64,000 nucleotides of DNA, taken from positions 1-64,000 of the forward strand of contig JAPEUI010000040.1 in NCBI GenBank assembly GCA_026025075.1. The letters run 5' to 3'. A program made the translations under genes and the position numbers. Position 1 is the first letter of the stretch, and every line of letters begins with the position of its first letter. Under the pieces are notes generated by a model, which was not told where the DNA came from, searched no databases, and saw nothing but the letters and a program-made list of their open reading frames with translations. Shown here in pieces: positions 12,730 through 55,193 of the stretch. Source of the stretch: Vezdaea acicularis. Taxonomy: Eukaryota.

Positions 12730-13735
12730 CTTGTGAAACGTGTCTGAATTCTAGTTCAGAAAGTCAGCACGCTATGTCCGGACGAACTGTCCTGTGCTGA
12801 CAAGACTTACTTACAAGAGGGTAGCGGCCAAGGGAAGAGAACCACGGTTAGTTGAGACAATTTCACGCGCCTCGGAGGCCGGAAGTGAACCAAACCCCTT
12901 CAATCATGAATTTGCAACGCATCCAGGCGCGTGAGCCGAATTGCCAGGCGATTAGGATCACGTAAAGGCGCACATTCCAATGTCAGGTCATTGAAGGATG
13001 GACATGTTAAAGGCGTAAAGCATGGAGGTAGACTCTGTCAAGAGCGTCAGGCGTGCCCAGTGCGTTTCGAGGGGAGTAAAGATTGACAAGATGTTGTGCA
13101 GACAGAACATCAAGTGGAGATTACGCGTGGAGAATCAATCTTCAACTGCACGTTTCTAAGCAAGATTATATCCCTTCGTAGGGAGCAGATATAGTGAAGG
13201 TGACTACGATGCGCAATTTACGGGAAACTAACTTTCGTAGGGCACCGTGTGTCGAGATAGCTCTATGTCCTGGACGTCGGTTGGTTGACTTTTAGCGAAA
13301 GAAAAACAACGGAACGGGCGCGCCAGTCTAGCCCTTCCACTCCCCCTGGACTGGAGGATCTCTGGCTATCGCAGGCGACGATCGGGAATTTGCAGAATTG
13401 ATTGGCTTCTGCTACTCCTGACTCAAATTTTCACGCAGATGTGAAGACCTTGAAAGGTTAACACGTTCAATAAGCCCCTAAGTTTCTCTGAAAAACGTTC
13501 ATGCCGGTACACCCTTCAACTCTGAGGACTTTGACATCATTGGTGTGGCGCTGCTCGGCCTTCCTCTTCCGTCACCGCGATTGTAAAATCGACCAATCAT
13601 CTCTGATCTGGGGGGAAAAACTTTCTTAACCCGCAGTGGGCACAACTCGTTTGATATCGCGCAAACGAACCACAAACCTAACAAGAAAATCCTCTCACAC
13701 CAAGATCGTCTCGAAGAACGGGATAGCTGCCAACC

Positions 13736-14224
13736 ATGTCGTCCACAGGTTTTCAAGTGCCGGCTATCTACAGGCTCTTCTTTCTTACTATTGAACCGGC
13801 TTGCCACCTCATGGGGGCGTATCTGGCATACTTTCGACCAGCCGAATACCTTCGCTTGACTCACGCCGCGTCGGCTCCAATTGGGGATGAGGTACCGCTT
13901 GCGACGAAAGTAGTTCTATACCAAGTTGCAGACTTGTGTATGTTCTTCGCAGTCTGTCAAGCCCTGGTGCTTCGTTCCTCGGTCGACCTGCGTGTTTGGA
14001 GGGCCCTTCTGTTTGCTATCCTTATTTCCGATGTTGGATACATCCTCAGCTTCACCCCGCTGGGGCTTGACATCCTCTGGGACGCCAAGAAATGGACATC
14101 CCTGCATGTTGGAGCTATCGTCTTTGGTTATTTCGGGGCAAGTTTACGACTGTCGTTCTTAGCTGGCATAGGGATGCCATTAGAAAACAGGCGCATGCCG
14201 TCTTCCCCATCAAAGCGTGGGTAG
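13736..14224 (+). CDS. Small uncharacterised fungal membrane protein, about four TM helices, 162 aa, intronless
   Basis: Four hydrophobic segments. The pattern IYRLFFLTIEP...ALVLRSSVDLRVWRALLFAILISDVGY resembles a widespread fungal DUF family (DUF7704-like, recalled, not verified). Confidence 0.8.
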   Translation: MSSTGFQVPAIYRLFFLTIEPACHLMGAYLAYFRPAEYLRLTHAASAPIGDEVPLATKVVLYQVADLCMFFAVCQALVLRSSVDLRVWRALLFAILISDVGYILSFTPLGLDILWDAKKWTSLHVGAIVFGYFGASLRLSFLAGIGMPLENRRMPSSPSKRG

Positions 14225-20867: not shown

Positions 20868-21737
20868 CTACCGCCGATAAAACCCCTTCTCGACAGGTGG
20901 AAGCGCCACCTGCCCACTCGGGCCATTCCACCTCCCCACCGGCGACGGCGGCGGTCCCTCCGTCTCCCACCCCGTCCCCCACCACTCCGCACGCCACCCC
21001 GTCCGCTCCTCGTCGTGGTCGTTCACGACATCGTCGTCTTCCTCATCGTCCAGACTCTCGACCTTCCAGCTGCCATCGCTATGACGCCTCATCTCCTTCT
21101 CCTCCCCCTCTTCATCCCCATCCCTGCGTCCCGCCCTTCCAGCAGGCGCCAGCAGCGCAACACTCGTTCTCGGCGAGACACATTCGCCGTCCTCCGCATT
21201 CTGCCGGCGTCGGCATCGTTGCAGGGCTGGAGCGACGCCCATCTCGTCTTGCAGATGAGGCGGCCACGCCAGCCGCCCATCCGCTGCCCGCCGCTGCGCT
21301 TCCGAGACGTTCATGCTGCGGCGGCGCTTCGCCGCCAAGCTCCTATTGTGGGCGCGTTGGCCGTCCGTCTCGCTGGGGAGGGAGATGGTGCGGGAGAAGA
21401 CGGCATTGCGGGACTTCTTCTGCGAGGCGAGGGCGTCGTGGCGGCGGTGCTGCCGTTGGCGGTAGTTGTTTGCCCATGGGGGAAGGGCGGGGAGGCGGAA
21501 GGACAGGGTGTTGGTGAGGGCGCGGAGTTTGGGGGTGGGGGAGGACGGCTCTTCGTGGGGAGCGCGGAGGGAGAAGACTTCGGTGCTGTAGGCCGGGTCG
21601 GGGTGGTGTAGCTTTGCTCGCACTTTCGTGCTGAGCTTGGAGGCGAGGCGGTGGATGAGGGATGGCGCCTCGTCGTAGATGTTGGGCATTACTGCCATGT
21701 AGGGCGTGTCTCTTCGCGGTTTGGCGTAGGGAGACAT
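20868..21737 (-). CDS. Hypothetical basic, largely disordered protein, 289 aa
   Basis: ATG in good context (CACAATG), CT-rich leader, TATAAAAGG box at about 22045-22037, convergent with PMC1. No domain recognised. Confidence 0.55.
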   Translation of the reverse strand: MSPYAKPRRDTPYMAVMPNIYDEAPSLIHRLASKLSTKVRAKLHHPDPAYSTEVFSLRAPHEEPSSPTPKLRALTNTLSFRLPALPPWANNYRQRQHRRHDALASQKKSRNAVFSRTISLPSETDGQRAHNRSLAAKRRRSMNVSEAQRRAADGRLAWPPHLQDEMGVAPALQRCRRRQNAEDGECVSPRTSVALLAPAGRAGRRDGDEEGEEKEMRRHSDGSWKVESLDDEEDDDVVNDHDEERTGWRAEWWGTGWETEGPPPSPVGRWNGPSGQVALPPVEKGFYRR

Positions 21738-23007
21738 TGTGAAGGTGGTGGTGGTAGCGGTGGTGGTGGAGGTGGTTATGGTGGTGTTGGTGAGCGAATG
21801 GAAGGGTTTGGATTGTTTGAGGGAGGTGTGGAGGATCCCTCTTGATCGTTGATGAATGAGAGATGGTTTGGTATAGTATCTTGTAGTAAGAACTTGAAGA
21901 TTCGTGCAGTGAAAAGCACGGTGTAGTAGATAGGAGAGAGAGATAGAGGTCTCCAGATATAATGAAGCTGTAAGAATGCTTTTACTGACAAGAAGAATAT
22001 AGAAAGGAAAGAGAAAAGCAAAGGATGAGGACCATTCCTTTTATACTCGTCCACGAAAGTGGGGCCCCTGAGCGCCCCGAGAGGGCTCGAGAGGGAAGAG
22101 CAGTCTAGTTCTCAACGATATGAAATGGGCGACCTCCCATTTGTTCAGACTTCCTATTCAGTGGGTCTTTCCCTTCGTCATCAGTTCAATGCAGACTAGA
22201 CAGCCTTAAAGCAGCTGTCAGATGTCAGAAAGGAGAGCTAGGGGGCGGGCGGCGCCGTTAGAGGCGTCTGGGAACCCTTTCGGATACCCCTATCCGAGGC
22301 GGAACCGTGGTTGAGATCGGTTGGTGGAGCTTATTTTCCCGCTAAGGAGCCGGAATGTTGCCAATTCAGTATTTGATAGAGGGATTGTTGGCTGGGAGAC
22401 TGCTTGTGATATCTGCGTCGACTCGATCTTTTTGTTGGGGGTGGGGTGGTTGGTGACTCGATTTCGACTAGGTGGATTCTTCCGATAAGTGGTGCTCCAG
22501 CTGATTCGATGAAGGGGTTAGGATCCGCTTGTTAGAGGACCATGCTCTTGATGGTGCATTGGGAGACCTCTGGTGCAATGCTCTGTATGACTCCTTGGCT
22601 TTAGTATGTCGCGTCATCAGATACCGCCGTTCAGTTGAGTTTGACCGGAGTGCAGTGGATAAAACCCTTCGCCCTTTCCCTTGACCTAGCCATTTTTATT
22701 GAGAGGATTTCGACGACTCCAGCTGCTAGCAACTGCAATTTCGAGCAAAGGATTTCTGGATTGTATGAAGAGGTTAGGATGCATTGATCTGTCAGGATAC
22801 TCGAAACAGCACGCATCGTGGAAATCACGAGTAAAGAACCACCCTAAAGGTTGAAGACAGGTGTACTTAATTGTGGGTATAAGACGTTAATCTACACTAG
22901 CATACAAGGGAATATTAGCATAGCATGACTCATATCCTTGCTACCAACCGCATTAATAGCAGGCCCATATGTGCAATGCTTTGAATAAGGATATCCTCGT
23001 GTACCGT

Positions 23008-26322: not shown

Positions 26323-27284
26323 TGGAGGCTAGTCGCACCCTGAAATAGTCATTGGAAAGTGATAGCACAGCAATCCATGGGCACCGGAATCTCGAAGTCT
26401 TAAGTTGTTGCTTGTCAAGGAGCTTCCGTCTTTGCGGGCAAGGGTTCTCGGCACCTTCTAAAAAGGCTTGGCATCAACCCACTCTAAAATAGCCATTGAA
26501 GCGAGCACAAAAGGGGCATGGTGTGCATGGGGGTTGACAAAGTCTTCCCATAAATTGAGACAAGTCAATATAGCGTCCTGGTTCAAAATGCACTCCACCG
26601 CTAGCTATGCTATATTTAAAAGATACCCGATACATGAATGCCAAGCAGGTGGAGGTGGGCCCTCCACCATTGAAACAGGGCCATCCAGCCGAAGATACCT
26701 TTACCTTGAGAGCATGTCTAGTATTTGACCTGCACTAGTTGGAGTGCTTTGAAGCATGCAAATCTTGATAGGCATGCTGAGCTCAGACCAGCCTTGTTGC
26801 TTTAATAAGGTTACGCAAACGCATCGACCTTTTGTGTATGCGACCCTTCTGAACATAGCTCCGAGCCACTGCTCTTGACCACTTCCTCTCTCTCGAATCT
26901 TGATGATACTCCTCATCTTCGCTTCTTACCTTTCATGTATTGCTTTACGAAACGGTGACCGTTTCCAAGTATTCTCACTCCTTATTTTCAGTTCGCACCG
27001 TAGTGTCAGATATCAACATCATTAAACCTGGTTTAAAGTGAAAAACTTTGAATTGCGCAATGATTGTCAGGGCTCATGACGTGGCCTATTGGCGGCCGAT
27101 TGTCTCACGTTCGCGCTGTGCTCAACACGAGGGCACGGGGTGCGGAATGCTCTTCCTCTTATGTGACCTCGGCGCACAAAATAGCTCATACCATTTTCCT
27201 ATATAGGTTCCATGGTACTGGATGGGTATTCCTTCTTTTGTATCTCGTGTGGCGTGTCTTCCACTAGGCAAGTGCATGATGCGT

Positions 27285-28092
27285 ATGAAAGGCGCCACAC
27301 AAGCGCTTCTCCTCCCCCTGCTCGTACCTGCCGCACACACTTTCCGGGTTGAGGGCTTGCAGGTATCAGTAAGCCCGATAGTTGACAGCATCGAGGTACA
27401 CGTCGGACGGCTCTCCTTCGTCCTCCATGATGACCAGAGTAGCAAAACAGAAACCGCCTGCCTCCTGCATTTCGACCCTGCGAACCTGCCCCAAAGCGAC
27501 AACATCGGCTGTCAAGTTCCGACTTATGGCTTCTCGTTCAGAAAAGGAGATAACGCTACGACCTCTTGGCCAATGGCCAACATCTCAAGTATTGAATTCG
27601 ACCTCTTCCACACGTGAGCGCTGCCCGACTAACCTTTTCCATCCCTTTCACCTCCTTTCCAAGCCCCCTTAAAGAAGCACAGCATCAAGCAACTAACCCA
27701 ACACCAGTATCCAAGTCTACCCCCTCCTCCCCAACAACACCATCTCAAACCACCCCCTCATCGCCATCCGCAAAGAAATCCTCCGCGCCACTCTGAACCC
27801 CACAAACTTCACCTGCGACAACGCCTCGCCCGTCGATACCTGCGGCTCCCCAACTTACGAAACCGCATTAATACCCACCTTCGTCGGACTATACACCGCG
27901 CCAGCCGGCTGGGTCGGCGACCCTGGCAATAGTTCGCAGCCGGGCATCGATACTAAGTACAAGCCCGGACCGGAAGCGCTGATTGACCTCTATAGTAACA
28001 TCCTCGTGAACTCGACGACGGGGAGACCGGTCGATGGCAATGTCAGTTTGGTGCAGCAGGGGTATAGGGAGGCTTCACCGGCAACGTCCTAG
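27285..28092 (+). CDS. Secreted four-Cys protein, probable Alt a 1 (AA1)-like beta-barrel domain (gene A); exons 27285-27613, 27708-28092; in-frame ATGs also at 27276 and 27279
   Basis: Signal peptide MKGATQALLLPLLVPAAHT; TETACLLHF...IGCQVPTYGFSF; GTGAGC...ACTAAC...CCAG intron; exon 2 reads IQVYPLLP...NFTCDNASPVDTCGSP...YTAPAGWVGDPG...ASPATS*. Confidence 0.8.
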
Positions 28093-28873
28093 TGGGAAAG
28101 GGGTGGAGAACCGTGTACCCTGTGTTGGCAACCCTCACTTGCTGCAGCGGCTCTAGGGAACGATCGACTGTTGCATTGGCTTCACTAAACTGAGTGCTAG
28201 GCTATGGAAGACTTTTTCGTGTGTATCCTGCGGCTAATCCCACTCGCCTGTCGGCTTGGGGCCTACCCTACCAACCCTACCAATACCCTGTGCATAGAAG
28301 GCGTGTCATCCGCCCTTGGCCAGTGCGAGGGGTAGATTTTGATGGAAATTTCTACTTCATTTCTTGCTAGGGCGTCACAGGGGTTAGCATGCATAGGGGT
28401 ATTTAGGTGGTGGGGGCTCCTCTGATAGAAGGTTTGCAGACCTGACGTCTCATCTGTCGGCTTTTGTGGTCATATGCTAGAAGTCGCTGGGATTGCTCTT
28501 GCTGCATTGGAGTGGATGATGAAACTTTATAATTGGGATGGGTAATAGGAAACGAACGCGGCGTCAAATGCGTTTGATTGATTCAGCGGTAGTTTGGTGT
28601 TCTGTATCTACATTTACAAGGGCTAGACACAGGCAAGTGGTCTTAGTCTTTACGTGCGATAACTTGGCGTCAATTATGGACCATTTTGAGTATCACTTAT
28701 AGTCTCAGGAACTGACAACCCTGTCCCATTTCGCCAGTCAACCCCCTTAACCCCCCTCCTCTCTCACCCTCTCACTCACACAGTCATGGCTCCCACCCTT
28801 ACGCCCGACAAAGCAGCCAATCTCCTCGACGGATTGCTATAGTCGACACGCTCGATCAGCTCCCTCACACCTT

Positions 28874-30266
28874 TTACGACGCAAGCTTATCCCCCACCCA
28901 ACCCGCCGGTGCCGGTACAGCCGTCCATGGCCCTAAGTATACCTCAGAGAGCGTCAGCACGGCGCCGTACTGATTCTCCACGTAATTCCACGTATGGACG
29001 GCTGCAAAATCATGCTTCGCGGTGCGGACGTCCGTTTGCCCGTTCGACCCGGTGACACTGTTGTGGGAGTCAGTATGCTGACTCATAGGCCCTATATAGG
29101 AAAATAGAAACTCACGTATGCTGTAGGGTTACCGCGACGTTTGCGCCTTCTAATCCGATTGCTATGCCCATGGTTGGGTTGCCACATACTTGGATGTTGG
29201 AACCAGCCGGCCAGGCGACGTCCCAGTCAGGCGAGGAGCCGTTAAAGAACTTGATGCTGGGAATAGATATGTTACAGTGGCCTGTTAGGCCCAGGACACT
29301 CCCCACAAAGCTATCGTTATCGGTAAAATCGATCGAGAACCAACTTGGGTTGCCGCTGTTTGCAGGTAGGTGGAGAATTGGGTTGGAGAAGACAAAGAGC
29401 GCACCATTGCTTGTGGGTACAGGGGGGGCTAGAGTTTGGTACGACACGACTGCGTAGGATAATGTAGTTCCTGCAGCGGCTTGTCGCTCTGTAAAATTCA
29501 TAGACGTGGGGTTCGTGTCTCGTTTACTTGGGTGTACGAAGCTACTGGGATAAGACGTGGCGCTGTTAACATAAGTTAATGTAGACAGTCGAAGGTAATC
29601 TCCAACCCAACCAGCTGGAGCTGGCGTCTGGGTATAAGGCTCCGAGAATGTTCCATACGTCGTCAGACCTACGCCCCCACCGAGCGGCAGAACAGTCCAC
29701 GTGTGGTAGTCTGGGTACGCATGTTTGGCAGTGCGGACAATGGTACCCACCGCTGGGTTTGTGATACTATGCAAGGCTTCAGCATCTTCAGATGTATCGG
29801 ATAATACGTGAACTTACGTATGCTGCAATGTTATTACAGTGTTTGCACCTTCCATGCTGATAGCAATACCAAATGTGAGAGCCCCACACGCTTGGATGTT
29901 GGATCCCTTGGGCCAGTCGATGTTCCAGCTTTCGGGGCCGTTGGAGAACGTAATACCTGGTATAGAGACGTTGCAGTAGGCTGACATGGCTCCAGCGGTC
30001 TCTGCAAAGGTATCAGTATCGGTGACCTCGACCACGAGCCAGCTCGGATCTCCGCTATTCGGCGGTTGATAGATAAATGGGGCATTGAAGGTGAAGTAGC
30101 TCGTTGTAGGAGTAGCAGCAGCTTGTCGCTTTTCGACTCTATTGAGGGGTGCGGATGTTTGAGTGGGCCGTGGTGCCCGCTCTATAACCTTGACGTGACC
30201 AACAACACCCCTGAGAAGGGCAGGGACGACGAGGAAGATATACAGAACCGCTTTGATGAAAGTCAT
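28874..30266 (-). CDS. Secreted tandem two-domain precursor with Kex2-type sites (gene B); exons 30266-29818, 29766-29116, 29057-28874
   Basis: Signal peptide MTFIKAVLYIFLVVPALLRGVVG; two clearly homologous repeats (NSG[DN]PSW..CN[VI]SIP..WP[KA]GSNIQ[AV]CG..EGAN..TLQHT|..VRTAKH..HTW..PAPAGWVGD). Both introns are canonical and restore the frame. Confidence 0.88.
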
Positions 30267-33210
30267 GCTTATGATTGGTATTTGGAGCCTGCCAAATATG
30301 AAAATTGCAATCGATAAAGTAGAGTCTGCTGCAAACCTGTGGAGGGTACGGCCATCTTTATCATTGGGGCGAAGGTCTAGTACTCGTTCAACGGCATCTG
30401 AGGCTGTGAAATGAGAAACAGCTAGAGTTTCATTGGTGTGAAACTTTAAGAAGTGAATGCCGCACGTCGGATGTATTTTGGTGCGTAAAGGCTTGATTTC
30501 TTCCACGCGCCAGATATAATGGAAAACCCAGGTGGAACTCCCGGTAAACCTACCCGGGAACCGGGATTGATGGATTGGAGACCGCTAGAAGGGGCCTTGG
30601 CAGCCTGATTGCCTAGTTTCCATAGAAAATCCATGATTTGGAGTTTTAGGTACGTCTAAAACCCGTCGGGGACGTGTTTCCCAAGATGGTGAAACAAATC
30701 CATTACGCGGATTTGGTACTTGCAAGGTCTTCGCCTTGAATCCTGTTTGACGTTCACCATTTCTGATACGCAATCCCAGCATCGTGGCCTGGTTGCGTCA
30801 AGCTATGAATGCGACGGCTTCTTCTCAACGTTGGGATTACAAGGTTCTTTGTTACCATTTTGGCTATTTACTGGCAGTCTGCGCCTCGCTTCTCCAACCC
30901 CATAATCTAAATTGGAGTATCCGCTCTGTCTCGTCCGAGCCCCATGCAACATTTGCCAAAACTGTCATTTGAGAATAGGCTCAATTAGGCTTGCTTAGTC
31001 TGTGGCGTAGCCATACAATCTATAGATTGAGTGAGTACTTCAAGCGGTCAAGCCTAATTGGCTACTTTGTCTAGGGGTTATTCGCTTGTGAGGAAAGGCA
31101 AGTCTGAAGACCCTTTCGATCGAGTGCTTGAATTAGATCTATCTTACTTAATATACGTCCTCGACAGACTAGTCTCAGTTAAATGTTGATGGCAAGGGCT
31201 TTTTGAAGGACACGCTGTAACCCATAGCACTTTCCCATCCATTGACTAGGAGGTTTTTGACTACGCACGAATTGAGAACATACGTCGACATCAGTGGCGT
31301 TCGCCTGGACGTGCTCGTGCATCTCCCTATCCTTCCACGGCGCCACCCGGGAACTTTCGTGGATAGAAACCGACCATGGTGGTCAAACCAGGACGCTACC
31401 TCACCGTGAAAACGCTTGAAAGCTTTAGGGGGTGATTCCCTTATTATCGGATAATGCAACGAAACACCGGGTCTCAGAATTAATCGCAATTTGCATCAAG
31501 GATGATGGACGTCGTGCCACCCTTCGGTTGGCTGAGACCGGATTTCCACTGCTGTGGGACTGGTCCAAAGCGGTCAAGCATGGTTCCATCCCAGCCCATC
31601 AGATTCAAGGATGTCAAATGGGTCGGGTATGGTGGGCGAATGCCGGAGCTCCATTATTGCGAACTTGGCGGGGATGCGCGGACCGGAACTGGCTCTATGA
31701 AAAGGATGTCTCGCAGTGGACTGTAGCAAGCCCTCCGAAGGCGCACAATTGACGTTACCGCCGCGCCGTGTTTTCATTGCGTTGAGCCCTAGTCGTGACG
31801 ACGACTCCTGCGAGGCATTTTTGCGACTTGCTGCTACTGTAGATCGAGTTTGCCAGGCGCGTGGACGTCGATCGGGTGGTGCTGTGGCCAGGCCTTCTCG
31901 TAAAGCAAGAAGCACCAGCCTTCAGCCTCGTGCGTTTGCAGAAAGTAAGAATAGATACGTGCATTGCACCTCAATCAGGAGTGCCTGACCGGGCGTCTCG
32001 TCGCTTCGTCGAGTTTGCAGCAGGTTCGAAGGAGACGAAAGTGACCTCCAAGCCTAGTGCGATGTCCGAATGGACCACCATACAAAGTAAAGTGGAATGA
32101 CAATTACAAGCTCGTTTTGTGCAACAGCTCGAGAGAGGGGGCATGTCTGGAACACATGAGCCAAATCAGATGAGTGGGCTCGTTTGCTAAGATGTGTGAT
32201 TCATCCAATGGCGGACGCGGGCATGGTCACCGCAATGCTTGGCCGCCGGCGATGATTTGCAAATTCGCAATGGAGGAGCAGGAAGCCGTGGGGTTACTGA
32301 CGAAGCCACGATGCTGTTGATGGGAAAGAAGAGAGGATAAAGCAACAGGGCAATCGATAGGCGCGCTGGCAGGGCCAGGCAAGAGCGTCTCGAATGTTGC
32401 CAAATTAGGAATGCGGCAAGGCCTGGGCGAGCGCTCTCGGGGCCCATCTCATTCACCCATTCCCACCGTTCCCGGCCCACGCTTGCCTGCTAAACCTTCT
32501 GCGCTCGCCCCAACCCACCCACACCTGACTCCTCCCTCCTGCCACCCTCCATGGTCCTTCGACAACTCTATCCTAACCACCGCCTCCGCCTCTTCCCAAT
32601 TCCTTGCACTCTCCAGCGGTGCAGGGAACTTTGATTTATCAACGACCACGTTGCGTGTGTTTGACCAGCTCATCAAGCCATCTCTGCATTGTCTCGACGC
32701 GTGTTTGGACCGATCGTGGCAGAGTTGTGAGGTGCCTTCAACACCCTTCGACCCGGTCCTGTTGATCAGTGCCGAAAAGTAAGCTCCTACCCTCTCACTC
32801 TATTACCCTCGTCCGCACATCCATAGGGAACTTCGTGGAGGCAAATTCAGATCACAGCTACGACGTACTGCTTCTTCAGAAGACGGTGCTCGTGTCTCTT
32901 TCTTGCCTTCGCGCCCTTTGCGTGGCAAGCTCGCTCACCGCCGAATTCCTGTGGTTCTTGGTGAAAGCTAATTCATCGCCTAGCGCAGGCTCAAGAAGGC
33001 TGCACCTCAAACACACATTATCTCGACACATTGTCCTCCATCTCAACACTGACCATTGCCATCTTAAACCGCTTCGAATTCTCTGCTCCTCCTGAACCTC
33101 CAATCAACTCCAGGCTTTCCATAGCAAGAGAGATATCTTGATATCAAACCCAAGCTCAGCTTTGAAGGATCTCACGACATCGTGGGGTCACTCCGACAAA
33201 TATCATCAAG

Positions 33211-51661: not shown

Positions 51662-53959
51662 GAGGAGAGGGGAGGAATAGTCCGCGGTTCAAGATCAGGC
51701 TGGGGGGGCGAATTGCGGGCACTGGTAGCACTGGATGGTAGGCATATAGAAGCACTGCATGGCGTGAAAGGATGAATGCCTCGAGGTTTCACGGGGGTAG
51801 GGCGTCTTCTATCAAGATCGGCGTATGGCAAGGAGGATCTCCCGCCTCTGTCCTGCAAACGACAACGATACCTATGCCTCATAGATAGTACGAAGCGCAT
51901 GATAGTTATCAAAACTCCCTGCAACCTCTCTCGACGTGGCTACTGACACAATGCATATCTATGACACCATTTGAAAATAAATGACATGACGGCGTGCTCG
52001 CTCCTTCTGTCTTTGGCCAGATCAAAACTCTGTGACTCGTGCCTTTAATCGTACGGGGAAAGAAGGCTGTGGAGACGGGTCAGGTGTTCTCGAAAAGACT
52101 TTCTTGGCTTGCTCTAGCCAAAAGAAAAAAGAAAACCACCGCCAAGTCTGGCGCCAGAAGCTGCACCGTAGCCGGAACTCTCACCTCTCGACGTGGCTTG
52201 CGAGCCAGAAAGCCCCGAAAGAGTAGACATGAGTCTCTCCCCGCCTGAACTTTCCTCTGTCCGGCTCTGTTTCCCCCTTGGCCCCCTTGGGTCAACACGC
52301 TCGATCCGGACGCGGGTGGAGTTGCAGCAGTCTGGCCGGATGGGGAAACGACGACCCAGCGGCCTGGCACCCCGTGGGGAACGGTCAGGAACCGTTTCAG
52401 ATATCGTTCGACGGTCAAAGGTATGCAGGAGAGCAGGGGGTGGCACGACGGGGGAGGTCGATGAAACGCGAGGACTTCAGGAGTTTGACGGTGAGGACGA
52501 CGGAAGGGGAAGGGGGGGTTCACCACCGCCGTCAACAGATACACGGCCGCGGCTGCCAAAAGCGAGAGAGCCGGCCGCTTCGAGAGTACCCGCCAAGTGC
52601 TTTGCCGCCGTTACGCTGCTTGGCGTTCGGTCGGGTCAGGAGAGGCACCTCCTTAAACGATCGAGCGGTCGTTTGGTGGTTGTGCCCTAACGAGCGATGC
52701 GGTGCGTCGTGCGCGCCCCGAAGAGGTCTAGCGCCCGATGAGGCCGGCGGGGGCGTCGATGGAGAGACGACAGGGCGCGGCGAGGACGGAGGAGGGGGAG
52801 GGGCGCGCGACGGCCCCGTTGGCCAGCAGCCCTTTGATATTGCGGTCGCATAGCGAATGAGAAGGATGCTAGCCAGCGTCGTCCCTCGAGGGGCTTCGGA
52901 GTCGCTGTCTGCTTGCGGCGAGCTGCTCGACCGTCCGCAGGGATGGCCGCCGCCGATCCGTGTCCGGCCGTGTCGAGTTGCAGTGGGACGTGGCCGTCGT
53001 GATCCCGGCGCGCCCAGTGCGAATCCCTCGAGCCCATCAACATCCCCGGGCCTGAGGAAGCTTCTCTCTCGTGCGCTCTCACTGGGTCCCGGCCCCCCCG
53101 TCAGCACAGCGTAGGGCTCGGGCAGCCCGCGGACGACTTCCCCTCCCCCCTCCCCGATGGCTCGAGAGGGCTGCATCCACGTCGCCGCATCCTTGCGCGC
53201 GCGCACGTCGCAGAACGCGCGCCGTTTCGTCCAGCACACCCTCTCCGCCGTCGTTCGAAGCATCGGCGCAGGGTCGTCGAGGATCGCCGGCCGCTTCGAC
53301 GGGCGCGTCTTGGCCGTGGCCGTGGCCGTGGCCGTGTGCCGACGTGCCCTACCATTTGGCTTTTCCCGGCACAGCAGCGTCTGTCCCCCCCCCCAGGCGA
53401 GCCCTACGGCCCGACCTACTTCCGCCGTTTCCAAAGCAGCCGCCGCCGCCTCCTCCTTCTCCTCCTCCCTCCCCGACCCCCGACATCGCCGCTCCATTCG
53501 GCTCCCCGTTCGCGTGGGCTTACCGTCGCCCGGACCGTCGAGCTCTTGGCAATCCGCGAGCACCACCACGGGGCCCCCTCATCCGCGAGAATACAAGTAT
53601 CGAGGAGTGTCCGCCCGGTCGACGCTGCATACGCTCGACATAGAAACAGATTCATCCTCATCCGCCGAACCATTTCTCCCCCGTGCTCCCCTCTTCCGTC
53701 TCCATTGCCGACCAGACCTTCTCACCCGCAACAGCTCCGCACCGTCCTGTCTTCTCAATCCGGGAGAAAGCTTCACATCCGCTCTTCGGCATCCCCGCCA
53801 ACCCCACCTCGCCCGCACCGGAAGAAAAAAACCCGCAAGGAGGATCAATCTCGCGGTCTGCATTCCGAGAGGGCCGTCGATCAGATTCATCGCCGCGGTC
53901 TGTCCGCGTTCGTTCATCTTTCTCGACCTCGCCCGATTCCCCTCCCGCCCAGCGCCAGC

Positions 53960-55193
53960 ATGCAAAACTCGCATCTCGACTACAACTATTTTGCGGGGCC
54001 CCCGCAACCCTACCAATTCGCGAACCTGGGCCTCTCCGATCTGCCACCCACCCCGACGGGCACGCACGGCCAACAAGCCGACAACTACCCCGATGGCTCT
54101 CCTCCCGTAAGCCCCCTCTTGTCCTCAATTAAAAGAAACAAAAACTTCCTTTTCAAACTCGGAAAATCCCCTCTAACCTTTCTCCTGGAAATTGTAGGAA
54201 TACGAACCCTTCCAGTCCTTCACGAACCCCTTCCCGCGCTCCTTCGACGCCCACGGCCACGTGCTCGCCGAGAAGGAGATCTCGCACGCGCCGGACCTGC
54301 TCGACCTGCACGCCCTCAACGAGCTCCAGAACAATGGCGCCGCCGATAACGACATCGATAGCATGCAGAACCAGCGCAGCAGCAGCGAGGAGAAGGAGCC
54401 CCTCACGCCCGCGCAGTCGCGGCGGAAGGCGCAGAACCGAGCCGCGTGAGTTTTTTTTCTACATTTTATATCGCTGATGGGTTGTGGTTGTGCGCGGGCT
54501 TTGTCGTAGCCATTGCTCCTTTCAATTGCTACTTTTTCTCGCTCTCACTCTCACTTTCTCTATCTTTACTAACACACATATCCCAGCCAACGCGCCTTCC
54601 GCGAACGCAAAGAACGCCGCGTCAAAGACCTCGAATCGAAACTCACCAACCTGGAAACCGCGTCCAGCAACCTCGCCGGCGAGAACCAGCGTCTAAAGCA
54701 AGAACTGCACCGCCTCTCCACCGAGAACGAGATCCTCAAAGCCACCTCCGCCCACCACCATCATCGAAGCACCAGCACCAGCAGCGCCTCCAACCCCACC
54801 TCTACAAACTCCACCTCCACCAACCCCTCCTCCTCTTCCTCCACCTCCAACCGCCGCACAACCCCCACCCCCCCACCTCCGGTCCTCGGGCCCATGACCT
54901 ACTCCCCCACCCAATTCTACACCTCCGTCCTCTCCTCCCACTCCAACAAAGTCCCCACCCACCGCATCACCATCAGCGAGCTGACCGGCGAGCGCCTCCT
55001 CGACGCCGGCGCCGCCTGGGATCTCATCCACGCCCACCCCTTGTTCGGGAAGGGCCTCATCGATGTCGCGGACGTCTGTGAGCGGTTGAAGATTAAGGCC
55101 ACTTGTGATGGCCAGGGGCCCGTTTTTCAGGAGGGCGATGTGAAGGAGGCTATTGAGGCTTGTGCTAAGGGGGGAGGGGATGAATTGATTTAG
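53960..55193 (+). CDS. Yap-like bZIP transcription factor (Fcr3/RsmA type); exons 53960-54106, 54198-54445, 54587-55193
   Basis: RSSSEEKEPLTPAQSRRKAQNRA|AQRAFRERKERRVKDLESKL leucine zipper; C-terminal GERLLDAGAAWDLI...CDGQGPVF. Confidence 0.92.

Follow-up and report, generated by a model that had tools for sequence, protein, structure and literature searches.

Two neighbouring genes of the fungus Vezdaea acicularis, here called gene A and gene B, encode proteins that resemble secreted glycoproteins and that carry the same peptide, APAGWVGD, at the end of each of their domains. They lie in the first 64,000 nucleotides of contig JAPEUI010000040.1 (assembly GCA_026025075.1), a stretch that is referred to below as the window. 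The reading that we favour, with moderate confidence, is that the two genes form an orphan family of secreted glycoproteins that was duplicated locally and is perhaps folded as a very divergent barrel of the Alt a 1 (AA1) type. It would be a small paralogous family found at this locus only, with one domain and a tail in protein A, and a pro-region and two tandem domains in protein B.

Gene A is located on the forward strand (27279-28092) and has two exons and a single 94-nt intron, the splice being read from the sequence. Its 239-aa product (P0006) consists of one domain and a tail, with cysteines at positions 61, 78, 148 and 157. Exon 1 (27279..27613) carries the start codon, encodes a hydrophobic N-terminus and the first half of the domain, where Cys61 and Cys78 lie, and breaks off after two bases of the Thr112 codon. 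The intron (27614..27707, GTGAGC...CAG) is in phase 2 and contains CTAAC branch-like sites. Exon 2 (27708..28092) encodes the C-terminal half of the domain, including Cys148, Cys157 and APAGWVGD, followed by a 56-residue tail and the stop codon (28090-28092). ATG codons are present in the frame at 27276, 27279 and 27285; without splicing the frame runs into a stop at 27615-27617, within the donor, and it resumes after the CAG at 27705-27707. The GenBank annotation starts at 27279, and the initial annotation of this stretch had started two codons downstream, at the ATG at 27285.

Gene B is located on the reverse strand (30266-28874) and has three exons, introns of 51 and 58 nt and a 427-aa product (P0003). 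Exon 1 (29818..30266) encodes a hydrophobic N-terminus, a pro-region that terminates in Lys46-Arg47 (30131-30126) and the N-terminal half of repeat 1 with Cys98 and Cys127. Exon 2 (29116..29766) encodes the C-terminal half of repeat 1 with its APAGWVGD, a linker that carries Lys231-Arg232 (29525-29520) and the N-terminal half of repeat 2 with Cys314 and Cys344, so that each repeat has one Cys pair, 98/127 and 314/344. Exon 3 (28874..29057) encodes the C-terminal half of repeat 2, again with APAGWVGD, then four further residues and a TAA stop (28876-28874). Both introns are in phase 2, the first (29767..29817, GTAAGT...TAG) in Thr150 and the second (29058..29115, GTGAGT...CAG), which has a CTGAC branch-like site, in Thr367. 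Read without splicing from the ATG at 30266, the frame meets a stop inside the GTAAGT donor (29817-29812) and resumes after the TAG at 29766; a second stop lies inside the GTGAGT donor (29115-29110), and the frame resumes after the CAG at 29057.

The two genes are convergent, tail to tail, and their stop codons are 781 bp apart. All three introns are of the GT-AG type, in phase 2, and positioned within a Thr codon that follows His: DLFHT/IQ, TLQHT/IT and TLQHT/VT (the slash marks the intron). At each junction the upstream exon gives the AC of the Thr codon and the downstream exon the T, and a stop is met at the donor in every unspliced frame (3/3 introns; all stop-to-stop frames over 26800-30800 were read). 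The spliced gene B is identical, letter for letter, to KAI9858745.1 (P0003; 'MAG: hypothetical protein M1824_004165 [Vezdaea acicularis]', where MAG stands for metagenome-assembled genome), and the spliced gene A corresponds to 'hypothetical protein M1824_004164' (P0006), which begins two codons upstream of the start first proposed. Both GenBank proteins belong to the metagenome-assembled genome of V. acicularis from moss samples; the species is classified in Vezdaeales, leotiomyceta incertae sedis. For another, new species of the genus, established isolates have been reported (abstract of PMC13616976, 2026). Judging by their frames and splice signals, we regard A and B as real, convergent, intron-bearing genes. 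The initial annotation had described two split genes facing tail to tail, with phase-2 introns in the Thr of His-Thr pairs, and it was right on both counts, its splices matching the GenBank proteins apart from the two codons at the start of gene A and the intron position holding at all three sites. It had also spoken of a hidden locus, which is not the case, because the same gene models stand in GenBank as hypothetical proteins.

A six-frame translation of the 64-kb window contains APAGWVGD three times and no more, and, as had been claimed, each domain copy ends in it: 27898..27921 on the forward strand in gene A (P0006 residues 176-183), 29621-29598 on the reverse strand in repeat 1 of gene B (exon 2), and 28912-28889 on the reverse strand in repeat 2 (exon 3). 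Among the three copies, all 7 of the degenerate codons vary at a synonymous position, with the amino acids unchanged. The synonymous differences imply that the copies are old and exclude a recent gene conversion; together with the lack of replacements, they indicate that the peptide is under purifying selection. The motif had been described as unfamiliar, and PAGWVGD, AGWVGD and APAGWV were indeed not found in the literature searched; to this its apparent conservation by selection can now be added. The 8-mer is not unique in nature, being encoded in 155 stretches of metagenome contigs of the Joint Genome Institute (JGI). The gene A codons for P-A-G-W (27901-27912) form a perfect 12-base palindrome, so that the opposite strand likewise encodes PAGW. 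This looks accidental, and the gene B copies use other codons.

The two repeats of gene B are clearly related to each other. They are identical at 81 of 183 positions (44%, E 1e-51) and have in common an RQAAA start, one Cys pair, an intron at the same column and an APAGWVGD end. This comparison shows that the two domains of gene B arose by a tandem duplication, in which the intron was copied along with the domain.

Secretion features, relatives and fold

Both proteins begin with a hydrophobic segment, the 10-residue hydropathy maxima being 2.36 in A and 2.64 in B, and a hydropathy scan found no internal transmembrane-like window in either of them. Protein A contains 8 N-x-S/T sequons and protein B contains 5, and each protein has four cysteines. 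Since a signal-peptide-like start is combined with sequons, paired cysteines and no other membrane-spanning stretch, the A and B proteins are most likely secreted or cell-wall glycoproteins, as far as a hydropathy heuristic and such sequence features can tell.

Relatives of these proteins appear to be confined to the same lineage. A phmmer search with the 216-aa middle exon of gene B against 1.84 billion representative proteins gave two matches, both of them gene B fragments: open reading frame (ORF) fragments on near-identical contigs, of which one has 96% identity to repeat 2 and the other corresponds to the repeat-1 exon. In a word-indexed search of 5.8 billion clusters, gene B exon 2 had no match, and gene A exon 2 and the whole of P0006 (E<=10) returned P0006 itself only. 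Among JGI metagenome contigs, the 155 stretches encoding APAGWVGD and the 393 that match two patterns from the N-terminal half include no relative detectable by tblastn. No Pfam-A family was found by hmmscan for the five exon pieces (E<=1) or for P0003, P0006 and a four-row repeat alignment (E<=10), and sequence searches of PDB (E<=10) gave chance-level rows at most, namely BMP10 (E 0.63) and IMP dehydrogenase (E 0.3). The absence of other paralogues is judged from protein collections that include the NCBI proteins of this metagenome-assembled genome. These searches support a lineage-restricted family, as initially proposed, whose relatives are confined to near-identical Vezdaea-type contigs in the collections searched.

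The fold was approached by structure prediction. AlphaFold2 gave unusable models both for P0006 alone (mean pLDDT, the predicted local distance difference test, 35.3) and for gene B repeat 1 (mean pLDDT 37.5), the latter from an alignment of four rows that covered both repeats and one variant; gene A was excluded from this alignment because its MAFFT alignments to gene B were inconsistent. Both low-confidence models are nearly all strand. A Foldseek search of PDB with the repeat 1 model, at its pLDDT of 37.5, gave nothing at E<=0.001 (best E 0.32, template-modelling scores 0.17-0.22), and no AA1 entry is among the rows listed for this query. Models of such low pLDDT would not count as evidence against an Alt a 1 relationship. 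The domain is probably all-beta.

Comparison with two described families may provide some clues. According to PMC6322577, the AA1 member PevD1 (structure 5XMZ) has conserved cysteines at positions 70, 84, 125 and 135 that form two intrachain disulfides, and reports of the AA1 family are limited to Dothideomycetes and Sordariomycetes. Tsp1 of Trichoderma virens (7CWJ) is described in PMC8616854 as a secreted dimeric beta-barrel with two disulfides (four cysteines) and no enzymatic activity. The Vezdaea proteins resemble the Alt a 1 family (PF16541; Alt a 1, PevD1, MoHrip1) in being small fungal proteins with a signal-peptide-like start and probably an all-beta fold, and gene A also has four cysteines in two short-span pairs (61/78 and 148/157). 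With the TSP1 family (PF27986) they would share the character of a secreted, cysteine-containing Ascomycota protein.

One weak lead towards these families comes from a protein-language-model Atlas. The neighbours of P0003 residues 50-208 are clusters of small Ascomycota proteins with scores of 0.88-0.80, although by the Atlas's own figures scores below 0.9 are leads only, and shuffled proteins reach them a third of the time. The top match (0.88) has no Pfam family. In one cluster (0.84) AltA1 is present in 11% of members; another (0.81) is named 'AA1-like domain-containing protein', with AltA1 in 30% and TSP1 in 18% of members; and a 'Small secreted protein' cluster (0.80) has TSP1 in 47%. Nine of the ten best family-bearing matches belong to this common family or clan (AltA1/TSP1). 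The residues around the Cys pairs of gene A also seem to resemble the AA1 signature.

Several observations weigh against such a barrel. The Atlas gave no usable match for gene B exon 2 alone. At E<=10, neither the AltA1 nor the TSP1 model of Pfam has a match among the exons, the repeats or the complete proteins, and no Alt a 1, PevD1 or Tsp1 (7CWJ) chain appeared in the PDB sequence searches at the same threshold, so that the Vezdaea proteins differ from both families in this respect. The Cys spacing of gene A had been likened to that of Alt a 1 and PevD1. The spans of the pairs are similar enough, 17 and 9 residues compared with 14 and 10 in PevD1, whereas the gap between the pairs is 69 residues rather than 40, 29 more. 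Each gene B repeat has one Cys pair instead of two, with a span of 29-30 residues. In addition, the Vezdaea domain is longer (~160 residues compared with ~135), the tandem two-domain architecture of gene B is unlike that of the Alt a 1 family, and Vezdaea, as leotiomyceta incertae sedis, stands outside the host range given in PMC6322577.

The strongest alternative is that the domain is not AA1-like, and is instead a separate undescribed extracellular domain of Vezdaeales, possibly with a new fold and with APAGWVGD as its signature. It is favoured by the lack of any Pfam, PDB-sequence or database relative at the thresholds tried, by the absence of a Pfam family from the best Atlas match, and by the two classes to which the AA1 reports in PMC6322577 are restricted. 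It is opposed by the AltA1/TSP1 membership of nearly all of the best family-bearing Atlas matches and by the PevD1-like layout of the four cysteines in gene A. Moreover, AA1-like proteins are known to be very divergent. A C-terminal APAGWVGD is not known from AA1 proteins. We consider a separate domain a serious contender, if a doubtful one. AA1/TSP1-like ancestry, with the domain as a very divergent beta-barrel such as occurs in small secreted proteins that other ascomycetes make, is a tentative assignment, for which we would put the chance not far short of even.

Relationship between the domains of gene A and gene B

The initial annotation had counted three copies of one domain. This holds well for the two repeats of gene B, and is less straightforward for gene A, which shares the 8-mer with them and otherwise looks like shuffled sequence. 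BLASTP aligned gene A with the gene B repeats, in both cases, over the exact 8-mer alone. The domains were cut into halves at the intron site, the motif being left off, and compared with 1000 shuffles; the in-register halves of gene A and gene B scored no better than these (z = 1.8, -0.1, -0.9 and -1.1), and off-register control comparisons gave z = 0.5, 1.7, -0.8 and 3.1. A profile of the two gene B repeats compared with gene A by hhalign gave P 1.7e-4 and a probability of 50%, a motif-driven score, and its alignment leaves the HT sites unsuperposed. The shuffle result and the unsuperposed HT sites both count against a single three-domain family. Parts of gene A aligned with parts of gene B by MAFFT gave inconsistent results as well.

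Other features do coincide. The 8-mer is found at the same edge of domains of like size and character, the HT[IV] site with its phase-2 intron precedes it by 63 residues in A and by 48 in B, the genes are adjacent, and the likeness between gene A and repeat 2 of gene B reaches slightly past the 8-mer (11 of 21 residues identical). Because of the shared edge, intron site, adjacency and character, we hold with considerable confidence that genes A and B are homologous. This likely homology rests on the coinciding features and not on alignable sequence.

It is rather improbable that A and B are unrelated, APAGWVGD being a short linear motif gained independently and the shared intron site a coincidence. 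Such an origin would agree with the lack of similarity outside the motif in BLASTP and in the shuffle test (z -1.1 to 1.8), with the different Cys patterns of A and B, and with the occurrence of the 8-mer in the 155 unrelated JGI stretches. However, it would leave to chance that the motif stands at the C-terminal edge of a ~160-residue domain and that, 48-63 residues before it, every one of the three copies has its HT[IV] tripeptide split by a phase-2 intron. The adjacency of the genes, the identity beyond the 8-mer in repeat 2 and the hhalign P value speak against it as well.

Two further claims can be viewed in this light. The suggestion that the gene B repeats keep only the first Cys pair of gene A is correct in that each repeat has one pair; MAFFT, however, pairs the second Cys of gene A with the first of gene B, and the B pair may correspond to either pair of A. 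A local expansion by domain duplication and inversion had also been envisaged, and of this the tandem duplication within gene B is well supported (E 1e-51). No further or decayed domain copy was found in the window by tblastn with the three domains (E<=50).

Haplotype variation, processing and genomic context

Contigs of four DNA-type moss/biocrust metagenome runs were compared with 27000-30500, and a diverged haplotype was present in three of the four (X1, X2 and X4). It shows 17 differences in 27002-27254 (6.7%) and 33 in 27298-27618, in exon 1 of gene A (33/321, 10.3%). Further downstream there are 4 differences in 27817-29063 (X2) and 2 in 28772-29334 (X1), or 0.3-0.4%. The divergence is mosaic, as if an old haplotype block ended inside gene A. 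One single-base insertion or deletion lies upstream of gene A, at 27128, and two lie in its intron, at 27621 and 27624; the exons are free of them. In X1 and X2, 43 bases in the start region of gene A (27255-27297) are replaced by 75 other letters, and at the end of the X4 contig the in-frame ATG of gene A is kept, with a signal peptide one codon shorter. Within codons 1-85 of gene A, 21 codons are changed, 11 nonsynonymously and 10 synonymously (27 of the 33 differences in exon 1 being listed), and at codons 32-37 six residues in a row are replaced. The variants of the gene B protein are F64S (1 in 150 residues) and A248T, T251A, S253T, N270D and I316V (5 in 129), with none in the ~60 residues of the last exon. 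The frames are kept across haplotypes and the N-terminal half of gene A is fast-changing, a pattern in which selection is not separable from a locally old haplotype block.

These data bear on the possibility that the genes are annotation artefacts or decaying, functionless pseudogenes, which would accord with the lack of homologues and of a confident AlphaFold2 fold. This is very improbable. Although the other haplotype is diverged at 33 of 321 bases of gene A exon 1, its open frames, its splice sites and its start codon are intact, and insertions and deletions avoid the exons; moreover, the motif does not vary even though its synonymous positions are saturated, and in frame the two repeats of gene B have kept 44% identity. 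With the frames kept across haplotypes, the pseudogene reading was rejected.

Gene B, in addition, may be processed after translation. In the fungal secretory path, Kex2-type proteases cleave after Lys-Arg (KR). Gene B has one KR at residues 46-47, directly before the RQAAA of repeat 1, and another in the linker at 231-232, which the second RQAAA follows at a distance of 12 residues, the repeat units starting at R47 and R244; gene A has no dibasic KR. Because of the KR after the pro-region and the KR in the linker, gene B is a candidate pro-protein that may be cleaved by a Kex2-type protease into two single-domain proteins. The RQAAA that opens both units (30129-30116 and 29486-29472, reverse strand) is preceded by K in the first (KR) and by E in the second (ER), which suggests that the duplicated unit may once have included a dibasic processing site. 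Gene B thus resembles Kex2-processed fungal polyproteins and repeat proteins in its signal-peptide-like start, its pro-region ending in KR, its linker KR and the RQAAA start of both units. It differs from them in that the units are whole domains of ~180 residues and not short peptides, are only two in number, and have ER rather than KR at the start of the second.

It is barely credible that A and B are cleaved to small peptides of which APAGWVGD is the core, in the manner of Kex2-processed repeat proteins or of (dikaritin-type) fungal ribosomal peptides, and this reading was rejected: the KR sites of gene B would suit it, as would an invariant short peptide that recurs in a protein with a signal-peptide-like start, but the motifs have no flanking dibasics (KR lies 152 residues before and 25 after motif 1), gene A has no KR, the repeat unit of ~180 residues has conserved cysteines and strands throughout, and none of the 49 window ORFs scanned matches a DUF3328/UstYa-type or other tailoring-enzyme family in Pfam.

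The window is densely packed with conserved housekeeping genes: the Pfam matches among these 49 ORFs include a Raptor N-terminal domain, Kelch repeats (Tea1-like), F-box/WD40, a P-type cation ATPase, glycosyltransferase 90, a protein kinase, dynactin p62, EB1, PX, coatomer gamma, ARP2/3 p16 and a DEDDh exonuclease. The same scan gave no match to tailoring enzymes, transposons or other secreted-protein families. Long ORFs without a Pfam match include 20871-22040 (reverse strand), 52535-53578 (reverse) and 53003-54346 (forward), and an ORF at 13727-14221 (forward) matches DUF7704, a domain of unknown function (E 1e-25).

A putative partner-directed protein family

In several respects the two genes are like the orphan candidate effectors of filamentous ascomycetes: they have no sequence relatives, they show secretion-like features and a local duplication, and the N-terminal part of gene A changes fast between haplotypes. 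In two respects they are unlike them. First, the neighbours of A and B are housekeeping genes, and the locus is not part of a compartment rich in effectors or repeats, which tells against the reading favoured here. Second, Vezdaea is a lichen-type or alga-associated, moss-dwelling fungus and not a plant pathogen. A role at the interface between fungus and alga, or between fungus and moss, may be envisaged, and the effector- or elicitor-like function put forward in the initial annotation is a lead.

If the domain is a barrel, as we tentatively suppose, APAGWVGD at its C-terminal edge could close the structure, or could serve for binding or assembly. We think it unlikely that the proteins have a new extracellular fold private to Vezdaeales, with APAGWVGD as a functional site used by protein A and by Kex2-released B domains where the fungus touches alga or moss. 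With such a fold the motif might be, for example, an edge that binds a ligand or partner, or might direct processing or attachment to the cell wall.

Fungal genomes commonly encode orphan secreted proteins of this kind. On present evidence, the picture here is that of an ordinary orphan small secreted protein, not of a new kind of system. Even so, the family is of modest interest because of its invariant motif and its isolated host lineage. If the domain is a barrel of the Alt a 1/TSP1 type, the family would be extended beyond the classes from which it has been reported, and a tandem two-domain form would be added to it; if it is not, the domain would be new. Lichen-type and alga-associated fungi are, as far as we know, poorly sampled, and we know of almost nothing about the proteins that they secrete towards their partners. 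A clean, locally duplicated, secreted-looking family that keeps an 8-residue motif strictly, and for which billions of sequences gave no relative, is a concrete candidate for such a partner-directed role.

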